A DNA stretch of 64,000 nucleotides from Pseudomonadota bacterium (lineage in GTDB: Bacteria > Pseudomonadota > Gammaproteobacteria > RBG-16-57-12). The first letter of the stretch is position 1. Every line of letters starts with the position of its first letter. This document shows positions 34,129-49,344 of the stretch, piece after piece. The DNA lies in contig JBFMHP010000031.1 of assembly GCA_040752855.1 (NCBI GenBank), positions 10,340-74,339 on the forward strand, in the 5' to 3' direction. The position numbers were made by a program, and so were the translations under genes. The notes beneath the pieces were generated by a model. The model had not been told where the DNA came from and searched no databases. It saw only the letters and a list, made by a program, of their open reading frames with translations.

Positions 34129-36222
34129 GTGACAACAGCGATAACAAAGACATTCCAGTACGGTAATCACACCGTGAAATTGGTGACGGGTGAGATCGCC
34201 CGTCAGGCAAGCGGCGCAGTAATGGCGAGCATGGGCGATACTACCGTACTGGTTACCGCTGTTGTAATGAAGGAAGCCGATCCTGGGCGCGACTTCTTCC
34301 CACTTACCGTGAACTACCAGGAGCGTACCTACGCTGCCGGTAAGATCCCGGGCGGCTATTTCAAGCGTGAAGGCCGTCCGACAGAAAAGGAAACGCTGAC
34401 CTCGCGTCTGATCGACCGTCCGATCCGTCCGATGTTTCCCGATGAATTCACCAACGAGGTTCAGATCATCGCCACCGTCATGGCGCTCGACCCGCAGATC
34501 GATCCGGATATCCCGTCGATGCTGGGGGCTTCCGCCGCCCTGATGCTCACCGGTTGCCCGTTCAACGGTCCCTTGGGCGCGGCACGCGTGGGCTACAAGA
34601 GTGGCCAGTATCTGCTCAATCCCACGGCCGCGGAGCTGAAGGATTCCGATCTGGATCTGGTCGTCGCCGGCACTGAAAGCGCTGTATTGATGGTTGAATC
34701 CGAAGCGAAAGAGCTGCCGGAAGACGTGATGCTCGGGGCCGTGGTGTATGGCCACGAGCAGATGCAGACCGCCATCCGCGCCATTCGTGAATTGGCCGCC
34801 GAGGCGGGCACCGTCTCCTGGAATTGGACCGCCCCGGCGAAGGATCTTGAGCTGGCCAATGCCGTCGCCCAAGCCGGCAAGGCCGATATCGCTGCGGCCT
34901 ATCAGATCCGCGTGAAGCAGGAGCGCTACGAGCGCCTGAGCGCGATTCGCCAGGCGATCACCGAAAAGCTCTGCCCCGCAGGGGCTGAAGCGCCGAAGTG
35001 GAGCCCGGAAGCTGTGCGCACCGCCATCGAGTCACTGGAAAGTTCCATCGTGCGCAACCAGATCCTCGAAGGTAAGCCGCGTATCGACGGCCGCGACACC
35101 AAATCCATTCGCCCGATCTCGGTCAAGACCGGCATCCTGCCGCGCGTGCATGGCTCAGCCCTGTTCACCCGCGGTGAAACCCAGGCCATCGTCACCATCA
35201 CCCTGGGCACCGAGCGTGATGCGCAAATCATCGACGCCATCGAAGGCGAATACAAAGACCCCTTCATGTTCCATTACAACTTCCCGCCGTATAGCGTCGG
35301 CGAGACCGGCATGGTCGGCAGCCCCAAGCGCCGCGAGATCGGTCACGGCCGCCTGGCCAAGCGCGGCGTGGCCGCCGTGATGCCTGCGTTGGAGAAGTTC
35401 CCGTACTCCGTGCGCACCGTCTCCGAGATCACCGAGTCCAACGGTTCGAGTTCCATGGCCAGCGTATGCGGCAGCAGCTTGGCCCTGATGGACGCCGGCG
35501 TACCGGTCAAGGCGCCGGTGGCGGGCATCGCCATGGGCTTGATCAAGGAGCCGAGCGGCTTTGCCGTATTGAGCGACATCCTGGGTGACGAAGATCACCT
35601 GGGCGACATGGACTTCAAGGTGGCCGGTACCGCCAACGGCGTCACCGCGCTGCAAATGGATATCAAGATTGACGGCATCACCAAGGAAATCATGCAAGTG
35701 GCCCTGGCCCAAGCCAAACAAGGCCGCCTGCACATCCTGGGTGAGATGGCCAAGGCGATCACCGCCCCGCGCGCCGATATCTCCGCCTTCGCCCCGCGCA
35801 TCACCACGATCCACATCAATCCCGAGAAGATCCGCGATGTGATCGGCAAGGGTGGGGCCACCATCCGCGCCATCACTGAGGAAACCGGCACCACCATCGA
35901 CATCACCGATGACGGCACCGTGAAGATCGCCGCCGTCGATGGCAACGCCGCCGCTGCGGCGCGCAAGCGCATCGAAGAGATCACCGCCGATGTGGAAGTC
36001 GGCCAGATCTACGAAGGTCGTGTCGCCAAACTGGCCGACTTCGGGGCGTTTGTCACCATCCTGCCGGGACGTGACGGCCTGGTGCACATCTCCCAAATCT
36101 GCGAAGAGCGTGTCGAGAAGGTCAGCGACAAATTGTCCGAAGGCGACATCGTCAAGGTCAAGGTCCTGGAGATCGACAAGCAAGGCAAGATCCGCCTGAG
36201 CATGAAGGCGGTCAACGCCTGA
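34129..36222 (+). CDS. pnp: Polynucleotide phosphorylase
   Basis: Two RNase PH domains, then KH and S1 domains. GTG start. 697 aa. Confidence 0.93.
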
Positions 36223-36250
36223 TCTCCAAATCACATCTTAATTCACTAAA

Positions 36251-36271
36251 AGGGCCGCAAGGCCCTTTTTT
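36251..36271 (+). terminator. Rho-independent terminator after pnp
   Basis: agggcc-gcaa-ggccct followed by ttttt. Confidence 0.8.
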
Positions 36272-36286
36272 AATATCTTTCTCCAC

Positions 36287-36595
36287 TCAATCTATGCCGC
36301 GCGCTTTATCATAGGCATCGAACAGGATCTGCTCCAAGCTTGGGGTTGCGTCAATCGTTTTTGAATTGATGGCGATAGCCACGACGTAACCGTTGGGGTG
36401 GTGAACGATCAAGGTGCGTAAGCCGGTGTCGTCGAAATAATTCATCACACCGTTTAAATGAAACGCAAAGCTCCCGTTCATGGCGCTCGCTGAGGCCCAA
36501 CCGAGTTGATCATCGATTACCGAGCGATTGGCCGTTATTTGGTATGTACGTGGGGGATGAAAGTTTCGCGGGCGGTCAAGTGGTGGAAAAACCAT
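36287..36595 (-). CDS. Hypothetical small protein (102 aa)
   Basis: ORF only, with a weak SD. It lies at the edge of a lower-GC islet and no family is recognised. Confidence 0.35.
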   Translation of the reverse strand: MVFPPLDRPRNFHPPRTYQITANRSVIDDQLGWASASAMNGSFAFHLNGVMNYFDDTGLRTLIVHHPNGYVVAIAINSKTIDATPSLEQILFDAYDKARGID

Positions 36596-36791
36596 GGCAT
36601 GCTCATGCAGACCTCTATCAATAGGCTCTGAGCGTATTTCTTCGAAAGTTTAGTGCCGGCGGCCAGGATAGCAACCGTCCTGATGCTATGTGTGAACCGC
36701 TCGAATTGCTGTCATTCCAGTGGATGCCGGAATCCAGGAGACTCACCGAAGAGGAAAGCACCGGACTCTGGCATGCGCAGGGATGACGGTG

Positions 36792-36813
36792 TTAAGTAAG
36801 TGCCATTCAGGCC
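36792..36813 (+). other. Copy A of a shared motif, TTAAGTAAGTGCCATTC(A)GGCC
   Basis: 17 of 17 nt identical to 50828-50844 and followed by GGCC in both copies. See the findings. Confidence 0.6.
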
Positions 36814-36890
36814 TGGCTCGGACTAATCCCCCTTAAGACCAGCTCGGAGTCGGTGAGATACGAACTGTATGCTTTGAGTTCTAAGTGTTG

Positions 36891-37868
36891 TCACGGATTG
36901 TTGGAGGCGACCTCAGTTGCTTCTGTTCTGGTCGCAGGAATCCACTGTTTGATGTCGGTCGGCTCGTCTGATCTGTCGCGCGCAGCGGCCGCGCCGCTGT
37001 CCAATGGCGGCGATGCTACGATGAAACACTCATTTTCCGCATTGCAGATGATGCCCTGGTCGTCCCATGGCAATTGCTGATAAAAAGCAGTGCCGTTCAA
37101 GGCGGGATACGGATATTTCAAGATATCGAAGTACGGGGAGGTATCGAAGTCTTTTGGCAGGTACACGGCATTATTGCGATTGTATAGGCGCATATCCCCG
37201 AACTTCTCATGACGCACGATGGGGAGGATCGGATAATGAACCGCGGAAAATGCCGATGCAATCATTGATGAGCAGATCGTCTTGTCCGGGATGCCCAGCG
37301 TGTGCGCGTAGAGACTTGAGTGCCAACGCCGTGGGAGGATGCTAAGAGGTATGACAAAGCGCGCCAAGTCAAACATCTGGCGAAGATTGTAATCAAGCCC
37401 CAGGTGATCGATGACATGGCGGATGATTTTTTGCGCGTCCGTCTGTGTCAGTCCGCGCGGACGGCAGAGCCGCAAATGGTGGTGGCGGTATTTTTTCAGG
37501 GGGGAGATGACGGTGCCCCGGGTCAGCAGCGGTTCAATCAACAGCCGTTCATTTTCTTTAGCGGGGTAAAATTGCAGAATCCGCTCGCGCAGATCGGCGT
37601 CGTGAATATCCTTGAGTCGACCGATGTAGATTGCCGAATGTGACCAGATACTTTGTGTAACAGCCTTGATGAGTTTGCTGGCCCGGCTGTGGCCTTCTAC
37701 CAAGAGGACATCGCAAGGCCGGATCTCGACTAAGAGGCGTTTGAAGTCACACTGGTAACGAGGGATTGGCGTGCTTTCCTTGCTTAACCAGTGCACCAGC
37801 CATTGCCGCAGCATGGATTTTATCTCCATGCCATTCCGAGTTTTATTATTCAATGTTCCCGTTTTCAA
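36891..37868 (-). CDS. YiiX-like permuted papain-fold (NlpC/P60 superfamily, DUF830-like) protein
   Basis: The segment CDVLLVEGHSRASKLIKAVTQSIWSHSAIYIG resembles the YiiX/YebB pattern GDIIF...S..S..I..AT.S.YSH.G. The gene has lower GC than its neighbours, and the C-terminal ~60 aa may be over-extension. Confidence 0.5.
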   Translation of the reverse strand: MKTGTLNNKTRNGMEIKSMLRQWLVHWLSKESTPIPRYQCDFKRLLVEIRPCDVLLVEGHSRASKLIKAVTQSIWSHSAIYIGRLKDIHDADLRERILQFYPAKENERLLIEPLLTRGTVISPLKKYRHHHLRLCRPRGLTQTDAQKIIRHVIDHLGLDYNLRQMFDLARFVIPLSILPRRWHSSLYAHTLGIPDKTICSSMIASAFSAVHYPILPIVRHEKFGDMRLYNRNNAVYLPKDFDTSPYFDILKYPYPALNGTAFYQQLPWDDQGIICNAENECFIVASPPLDSGAAAARDRSDEPTDIKQWIPATRTEATEVASNNP

Positions 37869-38254
37869 TTTTAAGCACCCCAGTCATGAAATATACAGAG
37901 CCGCTTAGATCATTTGGGAAATGTTTCGATCCTGATAACAATAATGTTAGCCGTCAGAGTCATTTTTTCCATACGAAGAAACATATTCACAATTATTGAC
38001 TTTTACCTTCTTGCATCGCGCTGCCGATTTGGTTGGAACTGCGCTATGCGCTACCTAATTCGTCCTGACGTCTGCTCATGACAAGGCGGTGCGAATTTTT
38101 GTACCCGCATTGGTAGATCTTACGGCGGTGGTCTATATATCTAGTTGTCAGGCAAAAAGTATTGCCTATTTATCCTATAAAAATATCGGTATAAAACGAC
38201 ATGACGCAAGACGAGGAATCGCCGAACGAGAGCTTATTGCGCTTGTCACGGAGT

Positions 38255-39841
38255 ATGGACAAGCGCGCTTACATGATTTTTCTCGTGGCGATGCTATTCC
38301 TCACTGTGGTTGTGCTCGGCGCATGCGCTCAGGTGGCATTGCCGCCGCACGCCACGCCAGTTACGGTCGTGCCGCAGCGCGACTGGTCGGACGCGATCCT
38401 GTATTTCGTGTTGATCGACCGCTATGCCGATGGCGACCAGGGCAGCAATTCACGCGTCGATCGGCTCAATCCGGGTGCCTATCATGGCGGCGACCTGTTG
38501 GGGCTTGCGCGACAACTCGACGAGATTGCCGCGCTTGGAGTCACCGCGATCTGGATCAATCCAGTGGTCAAGCAAATCGATTCACCTGTATGGGCCCAGG
38601 GGCCGCCGGGCAGCGGTTGGGAGGGAGGCTTCGAGCATTGGGCTTTTCATGGCTATTGGGCGGAGGACTTCGAGCGTATCGAGCCGCATTTTGGCAGCGA
38701 GGCGCAGCTCAAGGCGTTGGTAGAGGCTGCGCGCGCGCGCGGGCTCAAGGTGTTGCTTGATGTGGTCTACAACCATCCCGGCTACGGTGCGCGTTATCTC
38801 ACTGATCCCGCCACACGTCACTGGCTGCGCGAGAGTCAACCCGATTGCGCGACGGATTCGCTGACCTGTCAAGTCGGCGGACTTCCCGATTTTCGCACCG
38901 AGCTTCCTGAGGTGCGTGAGTATCTGTTTCGCGCCCATCTGGGTCTTGCCCAGCGCATCGGTGTCGACGGCTTTCGTCTCGACACCGTCAAGCATGTCGA
39001 GCATGACTTCTGGCGGGCGCATCGGGCGCGCAGCCGCGCCGAGCTTGGTACTTCGTTCTTCCTGCTCGGCGAGGTGTGGGGCGGCTCGTACGAAGTCCTA
39101 GAGCCTTGGTTTTCCGGTGACGAGCTGGATGCCGGATTTGATTTCACCTTTCGGGGCAGCTGTCAGGGATATGTCGAAGGTAAAGGACGCACGATCGCGT
39201 ACGCGGCGTACTTGAAAAAACGCCACCAGGTGCGCGCGGGTTATCACCTCGCGCACTACCTGTCATCGCACGATGAACCCATGTTTCTGCACGAGCTCGG
39301 CAATGACATCCAGAAGTTCAAATTATGCGCGGCGTTACAGATGACGAGCCTGGGGATTCCGGTGATCTATTACGGCGAGGAGGTGGCGCGGAAGGGCGGC
39401 GCGTGGCCAACCAACCGCGGTGACATGCCGTGGGGTGACCGCGCGATTGCGCCTGGCAACGGAGTGGCGCGCGATGAGAAGCTGCGCGAGTACTACCGTC
39501 AGTTGATCGCGCTGCGCCGCGCCCACCCGGCGCTGTCGCGCGGCGCCTTCCGCGAGCTTGCCACGGACGGCGATCTGCTGGTGTTTGCGCGCGAGGATCA
39601 AGCCTCGAACGACAGTGTGATCGTGGCGGTCAATCGCGGCGAAGCACAGGCCACCGCAACGGTCCCGCCGCCGTCGCGCTGGACCGAGGAAGCGGTGCGC
39701 GAGGCATTGAGCGGCGCACCGGCGGAAATCGATGACGGGCGGCTTGTTATCAAGACGCCGCCGCGCACCGCGCAGGTGTATGTGGTGGAGCGCAGAATAA
39801 CAGGGGCGATCCCATGGCCGACATTCGCTTCAAGCATGTAG
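38255..39841 (+). CDS. GH13 alpha-amylase family lipoprotein
   Basis: Signal peptide with lipobox (LTVVVLGAC) and GH13 regions: DAILYFVLIDRYADGD, GFRLDTVKHV, LLGEVWGG, YLSSHDEP. The ORF-track start at 38201 was trimmed to ATG 38255. Confidence 0.85.
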   Translation: MDKRAYMIFLVAMLFLTVVVLGACAQVALPPHATPVTVVPQRDWSDAILYFVLIDRYADGDQGSNSRVDRLNPGAYHGGDLLGLARQLDEIAALGVTAIWINPVVKQIDSPVWAQGPPGSGWEGGFEHWAFHGYWAEDFERIEPHFGSEAQLKALVEAARARGLKVLLDVVYNHPGYGARYLTDPATRHWLRESQPDCATDSLTCQVGGLPDFRTELPEVREYLFRAHLGLAQRIGVDGFRLDTVKHVEHDFWRAHRARSRAELGTSFFLLGEVWGGSYEVLEPWFSGDELDAGFDFTFRGSCQGYVEGKGRTIAYAAYLKKRHQVRAGYHLAHYLSSHDEPMFLHELGNDIQKFKLCAALQMTSLGIPVIYYGEEVARKGGAWPTNRGDMPWGDRAIAPGNGVARDEKLREYYRQLIALRRAHPALSRGAFRELATDGDLLVFAREDQASNDSVIVAVNRGEAQATATVPPPSRWTEEAVREALSGAPAEIDDGRLVIKTPPRTAQVYVVERRITGAIPWPTFASSM

Positions 39842-40959
39842 CCAAGCGCTTCGGCGAGGTGAGCGTGATCGAGGATCTCAATCTCGAGATCGCCGATCAG
39901 GAATTTATCGTGCTGGTCGGACCCTCCGGCTGCGGCAAGTCGACCATTCTGCGCATGATCGCCGGGCTCGAGTCGCTGAGCGACGGTGAACTCTACATCG
40001 GCGATCGGTTGGTCAACGACGTGGCGCCCAAGGATCGCGACGTGGCCATGGTATTCCAGAGTTACGCGCTCTATCCGCACATGACCGTGCGCGACAACAT
40101 TTCCTTCGGTCTGCGCATCCGCAAGATGCCGCCGCAGGAGATAGATGTTGCGGTCAATGAGGCGGCCGGCATTCTGGGTCTGAATGCGCTGCTCGAACGA
40201 AAACCGAAGGAACTCTCCGGCGGGCAGCGCCAGCGCGTGGCGTTGGGACGTGCCATCGTGCGCAAGCCTGCCGTCTTCCTGTTTGATGAGCCCCTATCCA
40301 ACCTCGACGCCGAACTGCGCGTGCAGATGCGCGCCGAGCTGGGCAAGCTGCAAGATCGTCTCAGGACCACCACGGTATATGTGACGCATGATCAGGTCGA
40401 GGCGATGACCCTCGGCGACCGCATCGCCGTGCTCAAATCCGGCAAGCTCATGCAGGTCGGACGTCCGCTCGAACTCTATGACACCCCGCAGAACATCTTC
40501 GTGGCGCGCTTCATCGGCTCGCCCCCGATGAATATGCTGCGCGTAGAGGTGGCCGACGACGGCCGCAGCTTGCAGCACGCCGTCTTTACCGTCCCGGTGC
40601 CGGAACGGTTACGCCAGGCGGTTGCGCCATACCGCAACAAAACCGTGGCGCTCGGCATCCGCTCGGAGCACATCGGCGAGGCGGGGCGGCAGGATTGGCG
40701 GTTGTCCGTGGAGCTCGATGGAGTCATCGATATCTTCGAACCGCTTGGGCACGAGATCATCGTGCACGTGCGCAGCGGCGAGGAACGCATCCTTGCCAAG
40801 TTCGAGGCGACCCGGCTTCCGGTGATGGGGCAGCAGATCCGGCTGGCGCTGAATGCCGATAAGATTCACCTTTTCGATGCGCAGACTGAACAGCGCTTGA
40901 GCGAAGCATACAGTAACGATGCACACGAGGAGCGTAGCCATGAAACGAAATCCGCTTAA
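39814..40959 (+). CDS. malK: Sugar ABC transporter ATP-binding protein (MalK/UgpC family)
   Basis: Walker A (GPSGCGKST), signature (LSGGQRQRVALGRA), Walker B (FLFDEPLSNLD) and a C-terminal TOBE domain. Confidence 0.88.
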   Translation: MADIRFKHVAKRFGEVSVIEDLNLEIADQEFIVLVGPSGCGKSTILRMIAGLESLSDGELYIGDRLVNDVAPKDRDVAMVFQSYALYPHMTVRDNISFGLRIRKMPPQEIDVAVNEAAGILGLNALLERKPKELSGGQRQRVALGRAIVRKPAVFLFDEPLSNLDAELRVQMRAELGKLQDRLRTTTVYVTHDQVEAMTLGDRIAVLKSGKLMQVGRPLELYDTPQNIFVARFIGSPPMNMLRVEVADDGRSLQHAVFTVPVPERLRQAVAPYRNKTVALGIRSEHIGEAGRQDWRLSVELDGVIDIFEPLGHEIIVHVRSGEERILAKFEATRLPVMGQQIRLALNADKIHLFDAQTEQRLSEAYSNDAHEERSHETKSA

Positions 40960-42175
40960 AGTGTTATTTGGTTCGATGATCGCAGCGGTGTTGCTGGGCG
41001 GTTTCGTTACGCAGGCCGTGGCCGAGACAACCGCGCTCACCATTTGGCATGCCTATCGCGGCGCGGAAAAGGCGGCGTTCGAGCGTGTGATCGCCAGTTA
41101 CAACAAGCGAGCGAAGGGCGTGGAGGTAACCACGCTGGCGGTGCCCTATGATGCCTACGCCGACAAGATCACCGCGGCGGTGCCGCGCGGCAAGGGGCCG
41201 GATGTGTTCATCTTCGCACAGGATCGGCTCGGCGGCTGGATCGAAGGCGGCGCGACCGTCGAGCCGATCGACTTTTATCTCGATGAGCAAACCCGCAATC
41301 AATTCCTGCCGAGCATGCTCTCGGCGATGACCTACCGCGGCACCGTGTACGGCCTGCCGCTCAACTACAAGAGCATCACGCTCATCTACAACAAGAAACT
41401 CGTGCCCACGCCGCCGAAGACATCGGGTGAGCTGGTCAAAATCGCCAAGGGGCTCACCAATGCGGCTGTCGGCAAATTCGGACTCGCGTACGCATACAAC
41501 GACTACTATTATCACGCCGCGCTGCAGAATGCCTTTGGCGGACGCGCATTCGATCCCGGACCGAAGCCGGCGCTCAACGCGCGCGAGAACATTGCCGCGA
41601 TGCAGCTGCTGCTGAAGTGGATGGGCAAGGATGCCATCGTGCCGGCGGAACCATCGACGGCGCTCATCACTTCACTGTTCAATCAAGGCAAAGCGGCCAT
41701 GGTGTTTTCGGGGCCGTGGTTCCTCGGCGAGATCGCGCCCGAGATTGATTATGGGCTTGCGGTGCTGCCGACCATCGACGAGGCCGGCGGCCAGCCGATG
41801 CGCCCCTGGGTCACGATAGAAGGCGTGTATGTGTCGGCCAGTTCCCAACACAAGGAAGTCGCGTATGATCTCGCCAAGTACCTGGTCTCGGAGGAGGCCG
41901 GACTGGTGCTCGCGGTCGAGGGCCGCCAGCTGCCCTCCAACAAGGCCGTGTACACACACAAAGAGGTGTCCGAGGACAAGGTGCTCTCCGCCTTCCGTCG
42001 CCAACTCGACACCGCGATCCCGATGCCAAATTTCGCCGAGATGACGGTAATGTGGTCGCCGGCCACCACCGCGATGAACACCATCGTGCGCGGTGCCGCG
42101 CCCCCCGAGGTTGCGCTGGAGAAGGCCCAGCGCTCGGTTGAGAAAGACATCGCCGCGCTGAGGAAGGGCAGATGA
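40940..42175 (+). CDS. malE: Maltose/maltodextrin-type ABC substrate-binding protein
   Basis: Signal peptide (MKRNPLKVLFGSMIAAVLLGGFVTQAVA) and MalE-like family-1 SBP sequence. GAGGAG SD. Confidence 0.8.
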   Translation: MKRNPLKVLFGSMIAAVLLGGFVTQAVAETTALTIWHAYRGAEKAAFERVIASYNKRAKGVEVTTLAVPYDAYADKITAAVPRGKGPDVFIFAQDRLGGWIEGGATVEPIDFYLDEQTRNQFLPSMLSAMTYRGTVYGLPLNYKSITLIYNKKLVPTPPKTSGELVKIAKGLTNAAVGKFGLAYAYNDYYYHAALQNAFGGRAFDPGPKPALNARENIAAMQLLLKWMGKDAIVPAEPSTALITSLFNQGKAAMVFSGPWFLGEIAPEIDYGLAVLPTIDEAGGQPMRPWVTIEGVYVSASSQHKEVAYDLAKYLVSEEAGLVLAVEGRQLPSNKAVYTHKEVSEDKVLSAFRRQLDTAIPMPNFAEMTVMWSPATTAMNTIVRGAAPPEVALEKAQRSVEKDIAALRKGR

Positions 42176-44142
42176 GACTGCGCGCTCACCTCACACAGCC
42201 GGTCGCCGTGGGCCTGTTGCTGGCGGCGTTGGCCGGTGTGTTGCTGAGCGCATGGTTCCTGGCACAGGCCCAGGACGCGGTGCTCGCCGAGCGCCAAGAG
42301 CGCGAGGTGATGATGCAAGGCATGGCGTTTGCAGAACTGGTGGCGGCGCTGGAAACGGCGGAACCCGACAGCGGCGCAGCGCGTATTGCTGCGCTTACGA
42401 GCGCATGGGCTGCGCGTTTTCCCGAGATCGTGACGCTGCGCGTCGTGCGCAGCGCCGACGCCCGGTTGCTCGCTTCGACCGACGCGCGCGATGCGCCGCC
42501 GTTTCCACGCCGTCTGGCGCGTGAGGAGAAACCGCTCTATGACCTTGGTCAGGAGTTGCGCGCCAACGTCGAGACCAACCTCGCGGAAGGGGTGTTTCGT
42601 AAGAAGCAGATCGATGTCGTCCGCCTCGACCAAACCCATTTGCGCGTGGCGGCGCCGTATTCGGTGGCGGGCAATGTCGTTGGCTTTGTTCAGATCGAAC
42701 AGCGTGTGGCGGCGCCCGTGCCGCCCTCGGCCGCGGGCAAAGCGGCGCTATTGATCGCCATGCCGCTGGCGTTGTTTCTGTTCGGAACCTGGTTTTTGCC
42801 GCGGCGTACGGACGCGGGTCGGCCCTGGGTCCACTATGGCATTGCATTGCTGCTGCTTGGTGTCACGTTGTATGGTCAGGCGCGCATCGGTCTGGGCGAA
42901 CTTGGTACGCGCGAGGAAGGGTACGCAGCGGAACTCGCGCAGCACTATTCTTCGATCCTGCGTGAATTTCAAACCGCCGCCAGCGCGCACGGGATTGCGG
43001 TCGAACCGGTGAGGGAGAACCGCTGGGATGTGGATGAGTATCAACGCCCGCGCCTGCTCATCACCGGCGACGGCAGTCTGGACCGTGCGGTGTTTGCGAA
43101 GGAGACCGGTGCGCGTCACGATCGTTTGCGCAACGCGCTGTGGGGCAATGCCGCGCTCAGCGCGCTGTTGCTCAGCTTCGTGGCGCTCGGCTACGCGCGG
43201 CGCCTGCGCCTGACGCTGATCGAGCACCGGAGCGCCTACGCCTATGTGGCGCCGGCAATCATCGGTATGCTGGTGCTGGTGTTTTACCCGTTCGCCTACG
43301 GTGTGGCCTTGTCGTTCACCGACACCACGCTGTTCAATGAGAATCTGCCGCTGGGCGAGCTGTGGGTCGGTATGAAAAATTACCTCGCGATCCTCGGCGA
43401 CTTCCAGGTGCTGCGCAGCACCGAGGGCGGCTGGGTGGTGAACTACCAGAACTTCTACTGGACGCTCTTCATCACCGTGGCATGGACGGTGTGCAACGTC
43501 ACCATCGGCGTGGGCGTCGGTCTGCTGCTGGCGTTGGCGCTCAACACCAAGGGGCTGCGCTTTACCAACGTCTACCGAGTGTTGCTGATCCTGCCGTGGG
43601 CGATCCCCAATTACATCACCGCGCTCACCTGGCGCGGCATGTTTCACAAACAGTACGGTGTCATCAACCAAATAATCCAGATGTTCGGCGGCGAGCCGGT
43701 ATCGTGGTTCGACGATGTGTTCACCTCGTTTCTGACCGGCATCGCCACCAACGGTTGGCTGAGTTTTCCGTTCATGATGGTGGTGATCCTGGGCGGCTTG
43801 CAGTCGATCCCGCAGGATGCCTACGAGGCCGCGCGCGTCGAGGGCGCCAGCCGCTGGCAGCAGTTCCGCCATATCACGCTGCCGTATCTGCGCCCGACCT
43901 TGATTCCGGCAGTCATCCTCTCGGTGGTGTGGACCTTCAATATGTTCAACATCATCTATCTGGTCTCGGGCGGCGAACCGGCCGGCTCCAACGAGATCCT
44001 CATCACCCAGGCGTACAAGATCGCCTTCGAGAAATATCAGTACGGCTATGCCGCGGCTTATTCGGTGGTGATCTTCATGATCCTGCTGGTGTACGGCGTG
44101 TTCCAGAACCGCGTCACACGCGCGACGGAGGCGATCACATGA
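42172..44142 (+). CDS. malF: MalF-like ABC permease with an N-terminal extension of about 340 aa
   Basis: The C-terminal half is a typical MalF/G-type TMD carrying the EAA-like loop. The N-terminal 340 aa hold three extra TM helices and a ~170-aa predicted periplasmic domain. ATGA overlap with malE. Confidence 0.8.
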   Translation: MRLRAHLTQPVAVGLLLAALAGVLLSAWFLAQAQDAVLAERQEREVMMQGMAFAELVAALETAEPDSGAARIAALTSAWAARFPEIVTLRVVRSADARLLASTDARDAPPFPRRLAREEKPLYDLGQELRANVETNLAEGVFRKKQIDVVRLDQTHLRVAAPYSVAGNVVGFVQIEQRVAAPVPPSAAGKAALLIAMPLALFLFGTWFLPRRTDAGRPWVHYGIALLLLGVTLYGQARIGLGELGTREEGYAAELAQHYSSILREFQTAASAHGIAVEPVRENRWDVDEYQRPRLLITGDGSLDRAVFAKETGARHDRLRNALWGNAALSALLLSFVALGYARRLRLTLIEHRSAYAYVAPAIIGMLVLVFYPFAYGVALSFTDTTLFNENLPLGELWVGMKNYLAILGDFQVLRSTEGGWVVNYQNFYWTLFITVAWTVCNVTIGVGVGLLLALALNTKGLRFTNVYRVLLILPWAIPNYITALTWRGMFHKQYGVINQIIQMFGGEPVSWFDDVFTSFLTGIATNGWLSFPFMMVVILGGLQSIPQDAYEAARVEGASRWQQFRHITLPYLRPTLIPAVILSVVWTFNMFNIIYLVSGGEPAGSNEILITQAYKIAFEKYQYGYAAAYSVVIFMILLVYGVFQNRVTRATEAIT

Positions 44143-45020
44143 AGCGCGCCACCAGCGACCAGAAACAGCACGTGCTGCTCCACCTGGTGCTCATCAGTTT
44201 CACGCTGCTGGCGATCTATCCGATCCTGTGGGTGCTCACGCTGGCGTTCTCCGGCGGGCAGAGTCTGGTAGTCGTCGATCTGCCGGCGGAGCCTGGGTTT
44301 CTCGACCGTGTGCGCAGTGTGCTGCCCTGGCCCGAGACGGTGTCGCTGAAAAACTTCGCCGATGTGTTGATCGACGAACCGTTCGGCCGCTGGCTGTTCA
44401 ACAGCGCGATCGTCGCCGGCGCCACCACCTTGCTCGGCGTATTCCTCGCCTGCACCGCGGCCTATGCATTTTCGCGCTTCCGTTTCCCCGGGCGGCGCAC
44501 CGGCATGATGATGTTTCTGGTCTCGCAGATGTTCCCGGGCACGCTGATGATGGTGCCGCTGTTCATCATCATCGTGAAGTGGCTGCATCTCGGCAACACC
44601 TATCTAGGTCTGGTGCTGGTGTACGCGGTGACTTCGATCCCGTTCTGCGTGTGGATGCTCAAGGGTTACTTCGACACCATCCCGATCGAGATCGAGGAAT
44701 CGGCGATCATGGACGGCGCCTCGCCGGCGACGATCTTCTTTCGCATCATCCTGCCGCTGGCCAAACCGGCGGTTGCCGTCACCGCGCTGTTCTCGTTCAT
44801 GACCGGCTGGAACGAATTCATCCTCGCCTCGATTTTCATGGAGGAGGAGACCGCCTACACCGCACCAGTCGGGCTGCGTTTCTTTGTTGGCGGGTTTTCC
44901 GCGCAGTGGGGCTATTTTGCTGCCGGTTCCATCATTGTTTCACTGCCGGTAGTGGCGCTGTTCTACTACCTGCAAAAGTACCTGATCGCCGGGCTCACCG
45001 CCGGCGGGGTGAAGGGGTAG
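44139..45020 (+). CDS. malG: MalG-like ABC permease
   Basis: MKRATSDQKQHVLLHLVLISFTLLAIYPILWVL... Six TM helices and an EAA motif region. ATGA overlap with the malF stop. The 552-aa ORF listed at 43362 is this gene plus a spurious upstream extension. Confidence 0.85.
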   Translation: MKRATSDQKQHVLLHLVLISFTLLAIYPILWVLTLAFSGGQSLVVVDLPAEPGFLDRVRSVLPWPETVSLKNFADVLIDEPFGRWLFNSAIVAGATTLLGVFLACTAAYAFSRFRFPGRRTGMMMFLVSQMFPGTLMMVPLFIIIVKWLHLGNTYLGLVLVYAVTSIPFCVWMLKGYFDTIPIEIEESAIMDGASPATIFFRIILPLAKPAVAVTALFSFMTGWNEFILASIFMEEETAYTAPVGLRFFVGGFSAQWGYFAAGSIIVSLPVVALFYYLQKYLIAGLTAGGVKG

Positions 45021-45099
45021 TAGTTGGTATAAATATGCGTGGATACTGCAAGGTAATTCCTTTGTTCATCATTAACCAAAGAGAGCCAGGAGGTGGATC

Positions 45100-45912
45100 A
45101 TGTGTAGCAAACGAACGACGTTGTTGGCGGCCGCAGTGGCCGCATTGATGGCGGGGCCGGTGGCCGCGCAGACCGTCACATTCACAGACCCGACCGGCGA
45201 CGATAAGGGGCCGGGCAACTATGCCTATCCCACCGATCCAGTGTATACACCGGGATCGTTTGACTTGACGGAATTGTCGGTTGAAACCAAGGGCGACAAT
45301 GTCACTTTCAATACCAGCGTGGCAACCAAACTGGAAGATCCCTGGGGAATGGGTGTGGGCTTTGCGGTGCAGATGATGTTCATCTTCATCGACACCGACC
45401 GCAAGGAGGGTAGTGGACACACTGAAGGATTGCCAGGTCTCAATATCAAATTCGATCCGAAATTCGCCTGGGACAAGGTGGTGATTCTCTCACCGCAGAA
45501 AAAGGCGCGGGTCGACAGCGAAGTGCGCAGCAAGGCTGAGGCGTTGGCTGCAGATATCGTAGTGCCCGCACGTACCACCGGACGAGGCAAGACCATCAGT
45601 GGCAAGGTGAAGTTGAGTGAACTTGGCGGCGGTGACCCGGCAAGCTGGGCTTACCAGGTTGTGGTGCAGTCCAACGAGGGTTTTCCAGCCAAGACCGATC
45701 TTTTGACTCGCAAGGTCAATGAATATGAGGGCCAGCATCGCTACGGTGGCGGCAACGATGGGGATTGTGATCCCCACGTGATGGATATCCTCGCGGGTAA
45801 GGGCAACGGGGCTACCGAGGAGGTCGAGCTGCAACACCAGCAGCTTAGCTATGAATGCGGTGAAGGCGGTGAGAGCGTGAAGATGGCAACACTCAAGATG
45901 GTTACCAAATAG
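45100..45912 (+). CDS. Secreted protein, paralog A, carrying a conserved DPTGDDxGPGxYxYP domain
   Basis: Signal peptide (MCSKRTTLLAAAVAALMAGPVAAQT). Its N-terminal ~115 aa align with the protein at 48184 and end at a shared AWDKVVILSP / AWEKAVILTP block. Confidence 0.7.
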   Translation: MCSKRTTLLAAAVAALMAGPVAAQTVTFTDPTGDDKGPGNYAYPTDPVYTPGSFDLTELSVETKGDNVTFNTSVATKLEDPWGMGVGFAVQMMFIFIDTDRKEGSGHTEGLPGLNIKFDPKFAWDKVVILSPQKKARVDSEVRSKAEALAADIVVPARTTGRGKTISGKVKLSELGGGDPASWAYQVVVQSNEGFPAKTDLLTRKVNEYEGQHRYGGGNDGDCDPHVMDILAGKGNGATEEVELQHQQLSYECGEGGESVKMATLKMVTK

Positions 45913-46010
45913 TGATGAGGTTGTAGCAAGTGAAGAGTAGTCCACACATTTAACCGCGGGATCGGCTCGACCAACGAGGCAGCACACCCGCAACAGGAGG
46001 ATAGTTCGTC

Positions 46011-48110
46011 ATGTCTAGCAGAATCAGAACAAGCCGCATTGCAGCGGCGGTGGGATCGGCACTCATGCTCCCAAGTCTGGGGAGTGCCGCGGAGATTGGT
46101 GAAATGCGTTGGTCAGGCAGTGTCTATGCCAAGTTTCTGGATGGTAATCGAAGGCTGGAGAACGGTCTTTACGGCAATTCGGAACAAGGTAACGGCGACC
46201 AAGGGCAAGGGATCGAATTTGAGCTGCTATTCGAGAATCAGGTCTCCAAGCAGGTCGAAATCGGCGGCCGGCTCTCGTCTCGTTTCAATAAGAACTACTG
46301 GTCCAACTTTGGTGGTTTCGGGGCCCAGGAGGAAGATGAACTCTCGGCGCAGTATATGAAGATGCGTGGTGCGTGGGCCCGGTTAACACCGGGTTATGAA
46401 TGGCTCGATTCGGCCCATATCGGCTCGCACGACTTCGGTCTGTTCGATGCATTTACCATGGGCAAGTATCGCTATATCGATCGCGATAATGCCTCGGGCA
46501 TCATTCTCCAGGGTTCAGCGCAGGACGATAAACTGCGCTGGGACCTGGCACGCCAATCTTTGCCACGGCTGTTCGCCGGTCCGCGGTTTCGCACGGATAA
46601 CGGAGACTCATTTGCCTTGCAGGCGCAGGATTCTGCCTGGGCCGGCCAGATCAAATATGCCTACACCCCGGAGATGAATCTCGGCGTGATCCTCGAACAT
46701 ATCAGCGACAACGAAGTGGAATCCACCGAAGACGATACCCGTGATGGGCAGAGCACCTCCAATCGCTACAACAACACCGTGCTCGGGCTCAAAGGCGATT
46801 ACAGCGCCGGCGGTCCAGTCGATGTGCGGGCGGCCGTTTATCGTTCCGAGATCAATATCCGCGATAACGTCTGCGATGGCAGCCTCAATGGCAACTGCCG
46901 CTTCAGCCCGACGGTACAGGATGATGCCACTGACACGGCCGTCACCCTTGATCTCGATTTCAACGATACCTTCGCCGAAGGACTGACGTTCAATGTGCAA
47001 CTGTTTCGCATCGGAGCAGACTTCCAATCGGTGCTAGCCACTCGACGCGAAGCCGACGTGCTGCGCACCGAAGGTCGTGAGGGCAGCTGGGGATGGAGTC
47101 GGCCGGACTACAATTTCGGCAACCGTGCCAATGCCAACTCCCAGGCGGGTATCGGCTATGGCGGCTGGAATGGGACGGCACAGCAGGTGGTCTCGCTGAT
47201 GGCCGACAACGACTTCACCGACTTTGACGAGACCATGGCCGAGAGCGTGATCGGCTGGCAGGGCATCACGATCGTGCCGAAGTGGATGCTGGGCGACTGG
47301 GAATGGTCTGCGGAATACAGCTATATCGATTTCGATACCAACTGGCAGGCCTGTGGTAAGGCAACCAAGGCCGAATGTATCTACAATCGCCAGGACGGCA
47401 TCCACAGCTGGGGGTTGGGAGGGGACTTCCGCTCCCCCTACGCACCCTATCAGGAAAAGACCCTGCAGATCTTCGCCCTTCACGCCGCGAAGGCTCTGGA
47501 CATCGGCACTGGTCTCGATGTTAGTGCACGGTTTAAGTATATCCATGATGAAGATGATCGGCTGACGGACAACAGCAAGCTCGCCGATGCCTATGATGGC
47601 TATCCTGATGCGGCCTTTGCGTTGAATCTAGACTGGTTGGCGCTGCCTGGGGCGCAGACGGCGGTAACCAGTGTGAAGGATGATGATCGTGAGGCGGATT
47701 ATTACACGTTGGGCGCCTCAGCGGGTTATCAGGTAACCCGGGATCTTTACGGACGCGTGGTTTACGAGTACCAATATGTTGATTTGGTCGACGGCACGAC
47801 CAACGTGGCGCCGGTTGGGATGGGCTTTGAAGTCAGCAATGACTTCGGCTATGCGGAGTACCTTACCGGTACTCACAGAAAGCACAAGATCGCCTTTCAG
47901 CTCTCATATTTCCTGTCCGGGGTTGAAATCGGTGCCGATATCCAGTGGTTGATTGGCACCTATGATCCGGAGTTCCGCGCGGGTAGCGGTCAGACGGTGC
48001 AGCGTACCGCAGACGGCAGTGCTGTGATTACCCCGCTGGGCAACATCGAGGTGGATGAGGTCGACTTGAAGCACTATCGGATGAAGGCCTTTATGAAGGT
48101 AAAATTCTAG
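46011..48110 (+). CDS. Large outer-membrane beta-barrel protein (699 aa), family unknown
   Basis: Signal peptide (AAAVGSALMLPSLGSAAE), alternating amphipathic beta-strand-like sequence rich in Y/G/D/N, and a C-terminal Phe (KAFMKVKF). Confidence 0.65.
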   Translation: MSSRIRTSRIAAAVGSALMLPSLGSAAEIGEMRWSGSVYAKFLDGNRRLENGLYGNSEQGNGDQGQGIEFELLFENQVSKQVEIGGRLSSRFNKNYWSNFGGFGAQEEDELSAQYMKMRGAWARLTPGYEWLDSAHIGSHDFGLFDAFTMGKYRYIDRDNASGIILQGSAQDDKLRWDLARQSLPRLFAGPRFRTDNGDSFALQAQDSAWAGQIKYAYTPEMNLGVILEHISDNEVESTEDDTRDGQSTSNRYNNTVLGLKGDYSAGGPVDVRAAVYRSEINIRDNVCDGSLNGNCRFSPTVQDDATDTAVTLDLDFNDTFAEGLTFNVQLFRIGADFQSVLATRREADVLRTEGREGSWGWSRPDYNFGNRANANSQAGIGYGGWNGTAQQVVSLMADNDFTDFDETMAESVIGWQGITIVPKWMLGDWEWSAEYSYIDFDTNWQACGKATKAECIYNRQDGIHSWGLGGDFRSPYAPYQEKTLQIFALHAAKALDIGTGLDVSARFKYIHDEDDRLTDNSKLADAYDGYPDAAFALNLDWLALPGAQTAVTSVKDDDREADYYTLGASAGYQVTRDLYGRVVYEYQYVDLVDGTTNVAPVGMGFEVSNDFGYAEYLTGTHRKHKIAFQLSYFLSGVEIGADIQWLIGTYDPEFRAGSGQTVQRTADGSAVITPLGNIEVDEVDLKHYRMKAFMKVKF

Positions 48111-48183
48111 TTCGTAAGAAATGAACGAGGCCGAGTCAGATTCGGCCTCGTTCTTCTCCAAGTCAAAAAGTGGCAGGTAGTGT

Positions 48184-49344
48184 TTGATGCAATTGCTGAG
48201 GCGTGTTGTGCGACCGGGAATATTCATAGGGCTGTTGGTATGTGACGTTTGTCTTGGCGCCACGGGTATAGAGATCGAGGATGTTCGCGGTGATGATGTC
48301 GGTGCTGGCGGCATCGTCTATCCCGATCGTGATGACTTTGCGCCAGGGGATCTGGATCTAGTGTCCTTTGCTGCGGAGCCCGCGACAGACGGTGTGTGGT
48401 TCGAGGCGAGTTTTGCAAACCCCATCCGCTCCCCGCGCGGCCGTGTTGTTGGTCTAGGACCCGAGCCCGTGGATCGATATGCCCGACTCGGGTTCTACAC
48501 CTTTAACCTTGATATTTACATCGACCAAGATGGTATTGTGGGCTCGGGCAACACCGCCACCGTTCCGGGGCGACAAGCGGCAGTGGATACCAGGTATGCT
48601 TGGGAGAAGGCGGTGATACTTACGCCGCGGCCCACCGAGGCCCGTACTTTGCTTGAGGGGTACTTCGAACGCACCCTGGAAGAGCAGAAAAGGGCGGTAG
48701 AGGGCCGGGTGAGTGCCGAAGAACTCGCCGCAATCAGGGCTTCGGTCAAGGCCCGCGTGGGGGATGCCTTCTACTTTCCCAGCGATGTGCGGGTACAGAA
48801 GCAAACGATCCGTTTTTTCGTCCCGGCGAGTTATCTGGGTGCAGGGTTCAATGAATCATGGCGTTACGTTGTCCTCGTCACTGGAGCCGAGATTGAACAA
48901 AACATGCACCTCATCGGAAAATCATCTCAAGGTTTTACGCTGATGATGATGCCGGTCTCAGTTGGAAGGCCACGCGACCGCTTTGGCCTGCAACGCGATG
49001 CCGACGGTGGTCAGCCGCCGATCGTTGATTTGCTCACACCAGAACCCGGGTTGCAGCAGCGGATTCTCTCCAACTACAACATCGTAACCGGACAGTTGGC
49101 AACATTACCTGGCGTGCCTTCAAAGGCTATCAAACCTGAACCTGGGCCAGGCCGCACATTCACGCCTTCACCTAGAGAGTCAGACATTGATGACCTGCTC
49201 AATGCGTCGCCCGTACCGGCGCAACAGTCCTCCGGGCGTAGTATCGCGGAACGGTTACGAAACTTAAACCAGCTCAAAAATGAAGGGCTAGTCAGCGATG
49301 AAGAATATAAACAGCTGCGAGAGAAAATACTCTCGGAGATCTAA
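48184..49344 (+). CDS. Secreted protein, paralog B, with the same N-terminal domain plus a C-terminal SHOCT domain
   Basis: Signal peptide, N-terminal domain homologous to the 45100 protein (GDDVGAGGIVYPD...RYAWEKAVILTPRP), and a C-terminus matching the SHOCT pattern (ERLRNLNQLKNEGLVSDEEYKQLREKILSEI). Confidence 0.65.
   Translation: MMQLLRRVVRPGIFIGLLVCDVCLGATGIEIEDVRGDDVGAGGIVYPDRDDFAPGDLDLVSFAAEPATDGVWFEASFANPIRSPRGRVVGLGPEPVDRYARLGFYTFNLDIYIDQDGIVGSGNTATVPGRQAAVDTRYAWEKAVILTPRPTEARTLLEGYFERTLEEQKRAVEGRVSAEELAAIRASVKARVGDAFYFPSDVRVQKQTIRFFVPASYLGAGFNESWRYVVLVTGAEIEQNMHLIGKSSQGFTLMMMPVSVGRPRDRFGLQRDADGGQPPIVDLLTPEPGLQQRILSNYNIVTGQLATLPGVPSKAIKPEPGPGRTFTPSPRESDIDDLLNASPVPAQQSSGRSIAERLRNLNQLKNEGLVSDEEYKQLREKILSEI

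Follow-up and report, generated by a model that had tools for sequence, protein, structure and literature searches.

In the E. coli maltose regulon (LamB, MalS and MalEFGK2) maltodextrins pass the outer membrane through LamB, an 18-stranded barrel, the alpha-amylase MalS acts on the periplasmic side, and a MalE-type binder serves the MalFGK2 importer. CymA and other specific porins are further known outer-membrane routes. The routes through this membrane listed in a glycoside transporter review of 2026 are confined to TonB-dependent transporters, plus maltoporin in the case of maltodextrins (PMC13543919). Barrels of the TonB-dependent type (SusC/SusD, Caulobacter MalA) have 22 strands, a plug and a TonB box, and in complexes of the MtrCAB or LptDE type a partner protein sits within a large barrel or below it. 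Glucodextran_C (PF09985, domain C of glucodextranase) has been described as a DOMON-like module in five glycoside hydrolase families of alpha-glucan enzymes, GH15, GH57, GH65 and GH49 among them; enzyme kinetics hint at recognition of alpha-glucan chains by this domain, direct binding being undemonstrated for any member (PMC10074034).

The locus described here lies at positions 38255-49344 of the window, the 64,000-nucleotide stretch of gammaproteobacterial DNA that was analysed. Eight genes, all on the + strand, fill this region. They resemble the E. coli maltose regulon in their apparent provision for outer-membrane passage of maltodextrin, a periplasm-side alpha-amylase, a MalE-type binder and a MalFGK2 importer, but differ from it in having all parts in a single cassette without MalT. 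Our preferred reading, which we consider fairly probable, is that the stretch is a self-contained cassette for uptake of maltodextrin or alpha-glucan, and that its last three genes encode an outer-membrane alpha-glucan channel that replaces LamB, is independent of TonB and has an obligate DOMON-like partner. No description of this operon was found in the literature on Glucodextran_C/DOMON proteins and on outer-membrane maltodextrin uptake.

Gene content and conservation of the cassette

The first gene (38255..39841, with the same start in the NCBI gene call) encodes an exported GH13 alpha-amylase, named alpha-amylase family glycosyl hydrolase at NCBI. The protein matched PF00128 (E = 8e-49), and its translation contains conserved regions I-IV (DVVYNH, GFRLDTVKH, EVWG and SHD) with the Asp/Glu/Asp catalytic triad of the family. 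The closest solved structures were the Anoxybacillus/Geobacillus alpha-amylases 5a2a and 4e2o (1e-62); the enzyme may belong to subfamily GH13_36. The N-terminus, ...VVVLGAC followed by AQV, holds a lipobox (L-G-A-C), as do at least 39 of 59 GH13 orthologs. The enzyme is thus a predicted lipoprotein closest to the Anoxybacillus type, unlike MalS.

The next four genes encode an importer of MalEFGK2 type. They specify a MalK-type ABC ATPase (39814..40959) with ABC_tran, OB_MalK and TOBE_2 domains, a MalE-like maltodextrin-binding protein (40919..42175; SBP_bac_1, E = 7e-38), a MalF-type permease (42172..44142; BPD_transp_1 at residues 446-649) and a second BPD_transp_1 permease of MalG type (44139..45020), whose start overlaps the MalF stop and which is 64-81% identical across related loci. 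The solved structures nearest to the family-1 binding protein are maltodextrin binders, the P. furiosus protein 1elj (2e-50) and the T. vulgaris cyclo/maltodextrin-binding protein 2zyk (4e-48). The NCBIfam MalF match is confined to residues 398-651 of the MalF-type permease. About 350 amino acids at the N-terminus of this protein form an extension without a match, which contains predicted transmembrane segments and is conserved in 54 of 72 loci. Since the scores of the MalEFGK2-type proteins were below the NCBIfam equivalog cut-offs, the exact substrate is putative. To judge from sequence, all five upstream gene families point to alpha-1,4-glucan or maltodextrin.

Downstream lie the genes of GdC1 (45100..45912, 270 amino acids), of a 699-residue outer-membrane beta-barrel (46011..48110) and of GdC2 (385 amino acids), which starts at 48187 (ATG, the NCBI call) or 48184 (TTG) and ends at 49344. 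The arrangement of the original prediction, a GH13 lipoprotein and MalK/E/F/G-like genes followed by three genes on the same strand, was confirmed, as was the C-terminal Phe of the barrel, whose translation ends in ...FMKVKF. The gaps of 80, 99 and 74 nucleotides given with it were coordinate differences, each one too large; the true values are 79 (MalG-GdC1), 98 (GdC1-barrel) and 73 (barrel-GdC2, or 76 from the ATG start). A GC-rich hairpin with a 12-bp stem between the barrel and GdC2 genes (48123..48153, + strand) may act as a partial terminator or may stabilise the mRNA. A scan for promoters and terminators was uninformative, with three promoter-like sites against 5.8 expected. The conserved genes flanking the eight (DUF4032/Kdo-kinase-like, Rap1a-like and a second GH13) were considered as parts of the system and rejected as lineage-specific.

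Synteny was counted on a tblastn map of related loci from Gamma- and Alphaproteobacteria, Acidobacteriota, Gemmatimonadota, Eisenbacteria and Syntrophaceae, among which the flanks vary by lineage. A GdC1-type gene was located directly upstream of the barrel gene in 75 of 75 loci, the order GH13-MalK-MalE-MalF-MalG-GdC1 was kept in all 60 of 60, and GdC2 followed the barrel in 69 of 70. GdC2 is missing from Sulfidibacter and from the distant variants described below. Because all examined related loci of sufficient length have the eight genes in this order, the arrangement is not due to chance. At least 327 species-level genomes, from several phyla common in soil and sediment, carry the cassette. 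Cultured carriers include Algicola sagamiensis DSM 14643, Aerophototrophica crusticola MIMtkB3, Acanthopleuribacter pedis KCTC 12899 and Sulfidibacter corallicola M133. The functional tie between the three extra genes and the alpha-glucan genes, proposed in the original prediction, is upheld by this linkage on both sides across phyla and by its persistence in rearranged and fused variants.

An unannotated 22-stranded barrel

The barrel is annotated as 'hypothetical'. It gave no Pfam match at E <= 10 and no NCBIfam match at E <= 1, and the sole result of a search of PDB sequences with a profile of the barrel alignment was meaningless (E = 0.92). The earlier suggestions that the barrel belongs to no characterised family, and that the module is built from parts other than SusC/D and LamB, therefore held. 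The family is small, with 225 representatives among 1.84 billion proteins.

AlphaFold models of the barrel had 22 strands and no plug; the first of these was of low confidence (pLDDT 62). Strand 1 begins in the model about five residues past the predicted signal peptide. Conservation is higher in loops L2, L3 and L7 (0.70-0.82) than in the strands (0.62). Compared with LamB, the barrel has no sequence relation (no match to the Pfam LamB family), 22 rather than 18 strands and a need for a DOMON-like partner. It shares the strand number of the TonB-dependent transporters, but lacks their N-terminal plug, TonB box and TonB_dep_Rec signature, with no match to PF07715 or PF00593.

A large barrel with a protein partner also recalls MtrCAB- and LptDE-type complexes, to which the barrel has no sequence relation. 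Some DOMON domains bind haem, and Met84 and His213 are conserved in GdC1, features that would suit a conduit in which haem-binding GdC proteins and the barrel form an MtrAB-like electron path across the outer membrane. We regard such a conduit as scarcely credible: the barrel has 22 strands, not the 26 of MtrB/PioB, and no PF11854 match, its MtrB score did not stand out from the scores of other barrels (15.0, 14.8) and fell to rank 16 with a better model, Met84 is lost in one natural fusion (P0276), and neither cytochromes or other multihaem partners nor CxxCH motifs are present. No redox genes are conserved near the cassette; the strict linkage is to sugar genes.

The Glucodextran_C partners and their fusions to the barrel

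The two secreted proteins flanking the barrel had been predicted to be paralogs, and this was borne out by BLASTP (29% identity, E = 1e-22) and by a Pfam model common to both. The domain, thought earlier to be of unknown family, turned out to be Glucodextran_C: PF09985 matched GdC1 with 194.7 bits (E = 2e-57) and GdC2 with 117.2 bits (E = 1e-33), the gathering cut-off being 22, and the protein names at NCBI and JGI already reflect this. GdC1 aligned with domain C of glucodextranase 1ug9 (E = 1.6e-19), in agreement with the beta-sandwich fold of that domain. In GH15, GH57, GH65 and GH49 enzymes the domain is an appendage, whereas here it is secreted as a protein of its own or forms part of a barrel fusion. 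A strand near the N-terminus of GdC1 (TVTFTD) was considered as a TonB box; this was rejected, as the strand belongs to the PF09985 fold and occurs in glucodextranase as well. The C-terminal part of GdC1 is an extra, highly conserved segment (QSNEGFP...NExEGQHRFGGG...C-C) that is weakly covered by the glucodextranase match. The tail of GdC2 is of low complexity, and the protein has a SHOCT domain whose match (E = 1e-4) does not reach the Pfam cut-off.

The paralogs are not equivalent. GdC1 is the universal and obligate partner of the barrel and GdC2 is accessory. Median identity of GdC1 across phyla is 61-67%, on a par with the Mal proteins of periplasm and membrane; that of GdC2 is only about 40%, and the barrel and GdC2 together range from about 40 to 50%. 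Two distant representatives, P0257 and P0276, are natural fusions in which a GdC1-type domain is joined to the N-terminus of the barrel by a Pro/Ala-rich linker without an internal signal peptide; the P0257 fusion was modelled from an unpaired alignment with pLDDT 81. A GH13 gene follows one fusion gene, and GH13 and GH15 genes are near the other. In other distant variants GdC1 and the barrel are encoded beside a GH13-like gene or a sugar ABC transporter.

These findings bear on where the GdC proteins reside. The original prediction saw a likeness to Sus-like surface capture. In such a model one or both GdC proteins, possibly exported through the barrel or assembled on it, would catch starch at the cell surface and feed it to the pore, with the GH13 lipoprotein also facing outwards. 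The faster evolution of GdC2 and the barrel relative to GdC1, often seen in surface-exposed proteins, would agree with this, as would the lipoprotein nature of the GH13 enzyme in most lineages, which resembles SusG, and an N-terminal passenger, flexible linker and barrel are the layout of an autotransporter too. SusD, SusE and SusF, however, are lipoproteins, whereas the N-termini of GdC1 (signal peptide ...PVAA, followed by QT) and GdC2 are of the signal peptidase I type without a lipobox, and Pfam detected only PF09985 in both, plus SHOCT in GdC2, with no SusD family. Moreover, the cassette contains no secretion or surface-lipoprotein export genes, the conservation of GdC1 resembles that of a periplasmic protein, and the fusions place the GdC1-type domain at the N-terminal end of the barrel, where an extra domain is usually periplasmic or in the lumen in known barrels (TonB-dependent transporters, LptD, BamA, OmpM). 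Surface capture is thus unsupported, and we consider it unlikely.

The Pfam entry for PF09985 speaks of an SLH-like binding module. The GdC proteins might accordingly bind the cell wall and hold a large general porin to it, as in the SLH-porins OmpM and SlpA, and the linkage to mal genes would then reflect no more than a requirement for a wide pore. A tether of such a general kind would not stay tied to GH13/GH15 and mal genes across all the architectures encountered. GH57 amylopullulanases have archaeal examples too, which would lack peptidoglycan. The domain goes with alpha-glucan enzymes of five families, GH57 amylopullulanases included (PMC10074034), and a role as an envelope tether appears quite improbable.

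The cassette encodes three exported proteins whose final location is putative, and the barrel could in principle be an export device for the amylase and/or the GdC proteins, or for an alpha-glucan polymer, instead of an importer of substrate. Export is a very improbable role in our estimate: the other five genes are those of a set for degradation and import, the neighbourhood of the cassette has no conserved gene for a glucan synthase or glycosyltransferase, and GdC-barrel fusions would permanently tether the supposed cargo.

A possible route for alpha-glucan uptake

In the preferred reading, uptake through a LamB-replacing channel, the plug-less barrel would be the outer-membrane pore, its lumen narrowed by the long and unusually conserved loops. 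GdC1, located at the N-terminal and presumably periplasmic end of the barrel, would bind the incoming alpha-glucan chain and favour its inward movement without TonB. The GH13 amylase, usually lipid-anchored, would trim the chain to maltodextrins, which the MalE-like protein would hand to MalFGK2. GdC2 may be a lineage-specific accessory glucan binder or an assembly factor. The GdC1-barrel-GdC2 trio would thus stand in for LamB, and the GH13 enzyme for periplasmic MalS.

A broader interpretation, which we offer as a tentative one, is that the barrel and GdC1 represent a new class of glycan transporters in the outer membrane, one that would parallel the TonB-dependent and SusCD systems but work without TonB. 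At its N-terminal end a 22-stranded barrel would be served or gated by a DOMON-like domain that binds alpha-glucan and is a separate protein or, in some cases, part of a fusion, and long chains might be pulled into the periplasm and degraded 'selfishly' by the tethered amylase in Acidobacteriota and Proteobacteria of soil and sediment.

The cassette points to a further outer-membrane route, made up of an unannotated barrel family and an obligate DOMON-like partner. As cultured carriers exist, the hypothesis is directly testable. If true, it would extend the known outer-membrane proteins by a new family, with a new architecture of barrel plus partner, and it would give a function to Glucodextran_C domains, the first demonstrated one for stand-alone Glucodextran_C proteins. 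Genes for the turnover of starch and glycogen could also be annotated better in little-studied phyla, e.g. in Thermoanaerobaculia, Holophagae and Steroidobacteraceae.

Gene content and conservation of the cassette

ORF listing and translation revealed eight consecutive + strand genes at 38255-49344 of the window, which comes from a Pseudomonadota MAG. By Pfam, the first encodes a GH13 alpha-amylase (PF00128, E = 8e-49) and the second an ATPase of the MalK type (ABC_tran, OB_MalK, TOBE_2); genes for a solute-binding protein of family 1 and two BPD_transp_1 permeases come next. The last three encode proteins of 270, 699 and 385/386 aa: GdC1 (45100-45912), the predicted outer-membrane barrel (46011-48110), which had no Pfam match, and GdC2 (48184 or, with an ATG start, 48187 to 49344). 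The original prediction of short gaps before these three genes was confirmed, although each had been stated one nucleotide too high (79, 98 and 73 nt), and the proteins flanking the barrel are indeed paralogs (29% identity, E = 1e-22). Unrelated genes lie on both sides (upstream rpsO, pnp and a C92-peptidase-like gene, downstream PsiE, a VTT-domain protein and a P-type ATPase), and no regulator gene was found inside or adjoining the cassette in the window.

The segment between pnp and the cassette (36000-38200) has a low GC content (0.515 vs ~0.60 elsewhere). Its only gene is that of the C92 (YaeF/YiiX-like) peptidase, which runs on the - strand; ahead of the GH13 gene there is a long intergenic region rich in AT. 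Directly past the barrel stop codon and before GdC2 there is a perfect 12-bp GC-rich hairpin (48123-48153, GAACGAGGCCGA...TCGGCCTCGTTC) followed only by TTCTCC. This hairpin may set the barrel:GdC2 ratio, either by terminating transcription in part or by stabilising the mRNA.

A degenerate-pattern scan over one genome per GTDB species detected barrel relatives in 327 stretches. The window proteins were mapped onto the best 80 of these loci and counted. The 80 loci belong to Gammaproteobacteria (Steroidobacteraceae, Algicola, Bermanella and others), Alphaproteobacteria (Azospirillaceae, Aerophototrophica), Acidobacteriota (Holophagae, Thermoanaerobaculia, Sulfidibacter, Acanthopleuribacter), Gemmatimonadota, Eisenbacteria and Syntrophaceae. 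Among them a GdC1-type gene was immediately upstream of the barrel in 75/75 loci, the order and strand GH13-MalK-MalE-MalF-MalG-GdC1 were kept in all 60 loci with enough upstream sequence, and GdC2 followed the barrel in 69/70, Sulfidibacter being the exception. The proposed linkage of the three additional genes to alpha-glucan genes thus held. Since the genes past these eight vary with lineage, the cassette stands as a unit of its own, one that was probably transferred between phyla; the best match of this Pseudomonadota window, for example, is an Azospirillaceae MAG.

In 23 loci, mostly of Acidobacteriota (within L052-L080), a second secreted GH13 gene is located on the opposite strand right after GdC2; the one in locus L061 (12363-14126, - strand, ~587 aa, PF00128 E = 3e-93) encodes a protein with only ~27% identity to the cassette GH13. 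In 33 gammaproteobacterial loci the downstream position is occupied by a DUF4032/Kdo-kinase-like gene.

Proteins linked to alpha-glucans

The cassette GH13 retains the catalytic regions in its translation and is closest to Anoxybacillus/Geobacillus alpha-amylases, then to neopullulanase/cyclomaltodextrinase enzymes. Its N-terminus (...VVVLGAC/AQV) is a lipobox; at least 39 of 59 orthologs have one, the remainder carrying ordinary signal peptides. The MalE-like protein most resembles the maltodextrin-binding protein of P. furiosus and the cyclo/maltodextrin-binding protein of T. vulgaris. By these similarities, the genes upstream of GdC1 point to alpha-1,4 maltodextrins as the substrate. The N-terminal third of MalF is an extension of ~350 aa (42172-43230) with predicted TM segments at residues 11-29, 187-205 and 322-340 and an extracytoplasmic stretch of ~155 aa after the first. 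This extension, which had no match in Pfam or NCBIfam, is conserved in 54/72 related loci and might contact periplasmic or outer-membrane components.

GdC1 and GdC2, whose shared domain had been taken for an unknown family, both match PF09985 Glucodextran_C far over threshold (E = 2e-57 and 1e-33, respectively). GdC1 also aligns with domain C of the glucodextranase from Arthrobacter (1ug9, E = 1.6e-19), and NCBI names both paralogs "glucodextranase DOMON-like domain-containing protein". Glucodextran_C is a member of the DOMON-like superfamily with a CBM9-like beta-sandwich fold, found in glucodextranase (GH15), amylopullulanase (GH57), a dextran debranching enzyme (GH65) and dextranases (GH49); enzyme kinetics suggested that it may recognize alpha-glucan chains (PMC10074034). 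Residues 37-131 of GdC1 (45208-45492) are matched at E = 5e-4 by a chain of 311 aa in the recent PDB entry 9x81; it is named "Alpha-amylase" and may be a solved Glucodextran_C-type module of an amylase. GdC2 ends in a low-complexity stretch and a SHOCT-like short domain (49240-49344, E = 1e-4, under the Pfam cut-off). This tail is lineage-specific, since the Thermoanaerobaculia orthologs end differently (...VVIPGVVPAEQ).

In the window proteins and orthologs alike, GdC1 and GdC2 have signal peptides of the signal-peptidase-I type and no lipobox. The cassette had been viewed as a Sus-like module that captures starch or maltodextrin at the cell surface and imports it. The link to alpha-glucans stands, but surface capture is unlikely: neither GdC protein is a lipoprotein, and export genes are absent from the cassette.

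The barrel family and its fusions

The barrel, which ends in ...FMKVKF, found no match in Pfam or NCBIfam, even at permissive thresholds, and no sequence relative in the PDB, in keeping with the view that it is not a recognised family. Its homologs are without exception unnamed or "hypothetical", as is the window protein itself ("hypothetical protein", MEW5756972.1). The family is compact: among 1.84 billion cluster representatives, searched exhaustively with a profile, no more than 225 relatives came up at E <= 1e-3, and many of these are fragments. Both the AF2 model of the window barrel (pLDDT 62, pTM 0.66) and the better one obtained for a fused homolog (pLDDT 81, pTM 0.74) have 22 long antiparallel strands. 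In the window barrel, strand 1 starts a few residues past the signal peptide, indicating that there is no plug domain.

In a cross-phylum alignment of 76 sequences the long loops L2 (residues 93-115), L3 (140-161) and L7 (335-415) scored 0.70-0.82 vs 0.62 in the membrane strands, and L3 holds an invariant GKxRYIDRDN. Conservation this high is unusual in surface loops. That the loops are more conserved than the strands suggests that they are folded inward into the lumen or make contact with a protein. Conserved Cys pairs at residues 288-296 (46872-46898) and 448-456 (47352-47378), in predicted long loops L6 and L8, suggest disulfide-stabilised loops.

Two distant barrel relatives, P0257 (877 aa) and P0276 (959 aa), are natural single-polypeptide fusions in which an N-terminal Glucodextran_C domain is followed by a Pro/Ala-rich linker and barrel strand 1 (L081 106-2739; L083 2152-5031). 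They are not gene-calling artefacts, because no internal signal peptide separates the two parts. A GH13 gene directly follows P0257, and GH13 and GH15 genes are near P0276. In other distant variants GdC1 immediately precedes the barrel (the two overlap in L086), and what lies downstream is either a MalK-like ATPase with sugar permeases or a 906-aa GH13-like protein. The association with alpha-glucan enzymes was thus kept through all rearrangements observed. As all distant variants examined lack a GdC2-type gene while keeping the other two, GdC1 plus barrel is the universal core, and GdC2 is accessory to the form with eight genes. The fusions suggest that GdC1 and the barrel act together physically.

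The fusion layout resembles OmpM/SlpA, and an SLH-like role of the GdC domains in anchoring the porin to the wall would agree with Pfam's wording. We nevertheless regard such a tether as rather improbable, for it clashes with both the beta-sandwich fold of Glucodextran_C and its strict tie to alpha-glucan enzymes. That the barrel is a secretion device is poorly supported and more improbable still. Least probable, and also poorly supported, is an electron conduit through the barrel with haem-binding DOMON proteins: CxxCH motifs and redox neighbours are absent, the barrel has 22 strands, not 26, and Met84 of GdC1 is not kept in P0276.

A putative outer-membrane route for alpha-glucans

We consider it fairly probable, judging from gene content and conservation, that the cassette is an outer-membrane alpha-glucan uptake module. 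In a specific form, to which we assign about half that probability, the barrel would replace LamB as the outer-membrane alpha-glucan pore and GdC1 would bind the chain at the periplasmic, N-terminal end of the barrel, serving as receiver or gate. The role of MalS would fall to the tethered GH13, and the MalE-like protein and MalFGK2 would finish import. A periplasmic GdC1 is supported by its position at the N-terminus of the barrel in the fusions and by its conservation (61-67% identity), which is similar to that of the Mal proteins, the barrel and GdC2 being at ~40-50%.

The cassette would operate like the LamB/MalS/MalEFGK2 pathway. Its barrel and GdC proteins, however, fall by membership tests outside LamB, TBDT/SusC, SusD and MtrB, even if 22 strands, an additional domain positioned N-terminally and a presumed glycan-binding partner are an architectural echo of TonB-dependent transporters. 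As routes across the outer membrane, a review of glycoside transporters in bacteria from September 2026 lists just TBDTs and maltoporin, and DOMON proteins do not appear in it (PMC13543919). Literature searches found no paper on the eight-gene operon. Comparative genomics gives good support to a maltodextrin utilisation operon whose outer-membrane stage would combine a barrel of an undescribed family with a DOMON-like partner, and this hypothesis is testable in cultured strains.
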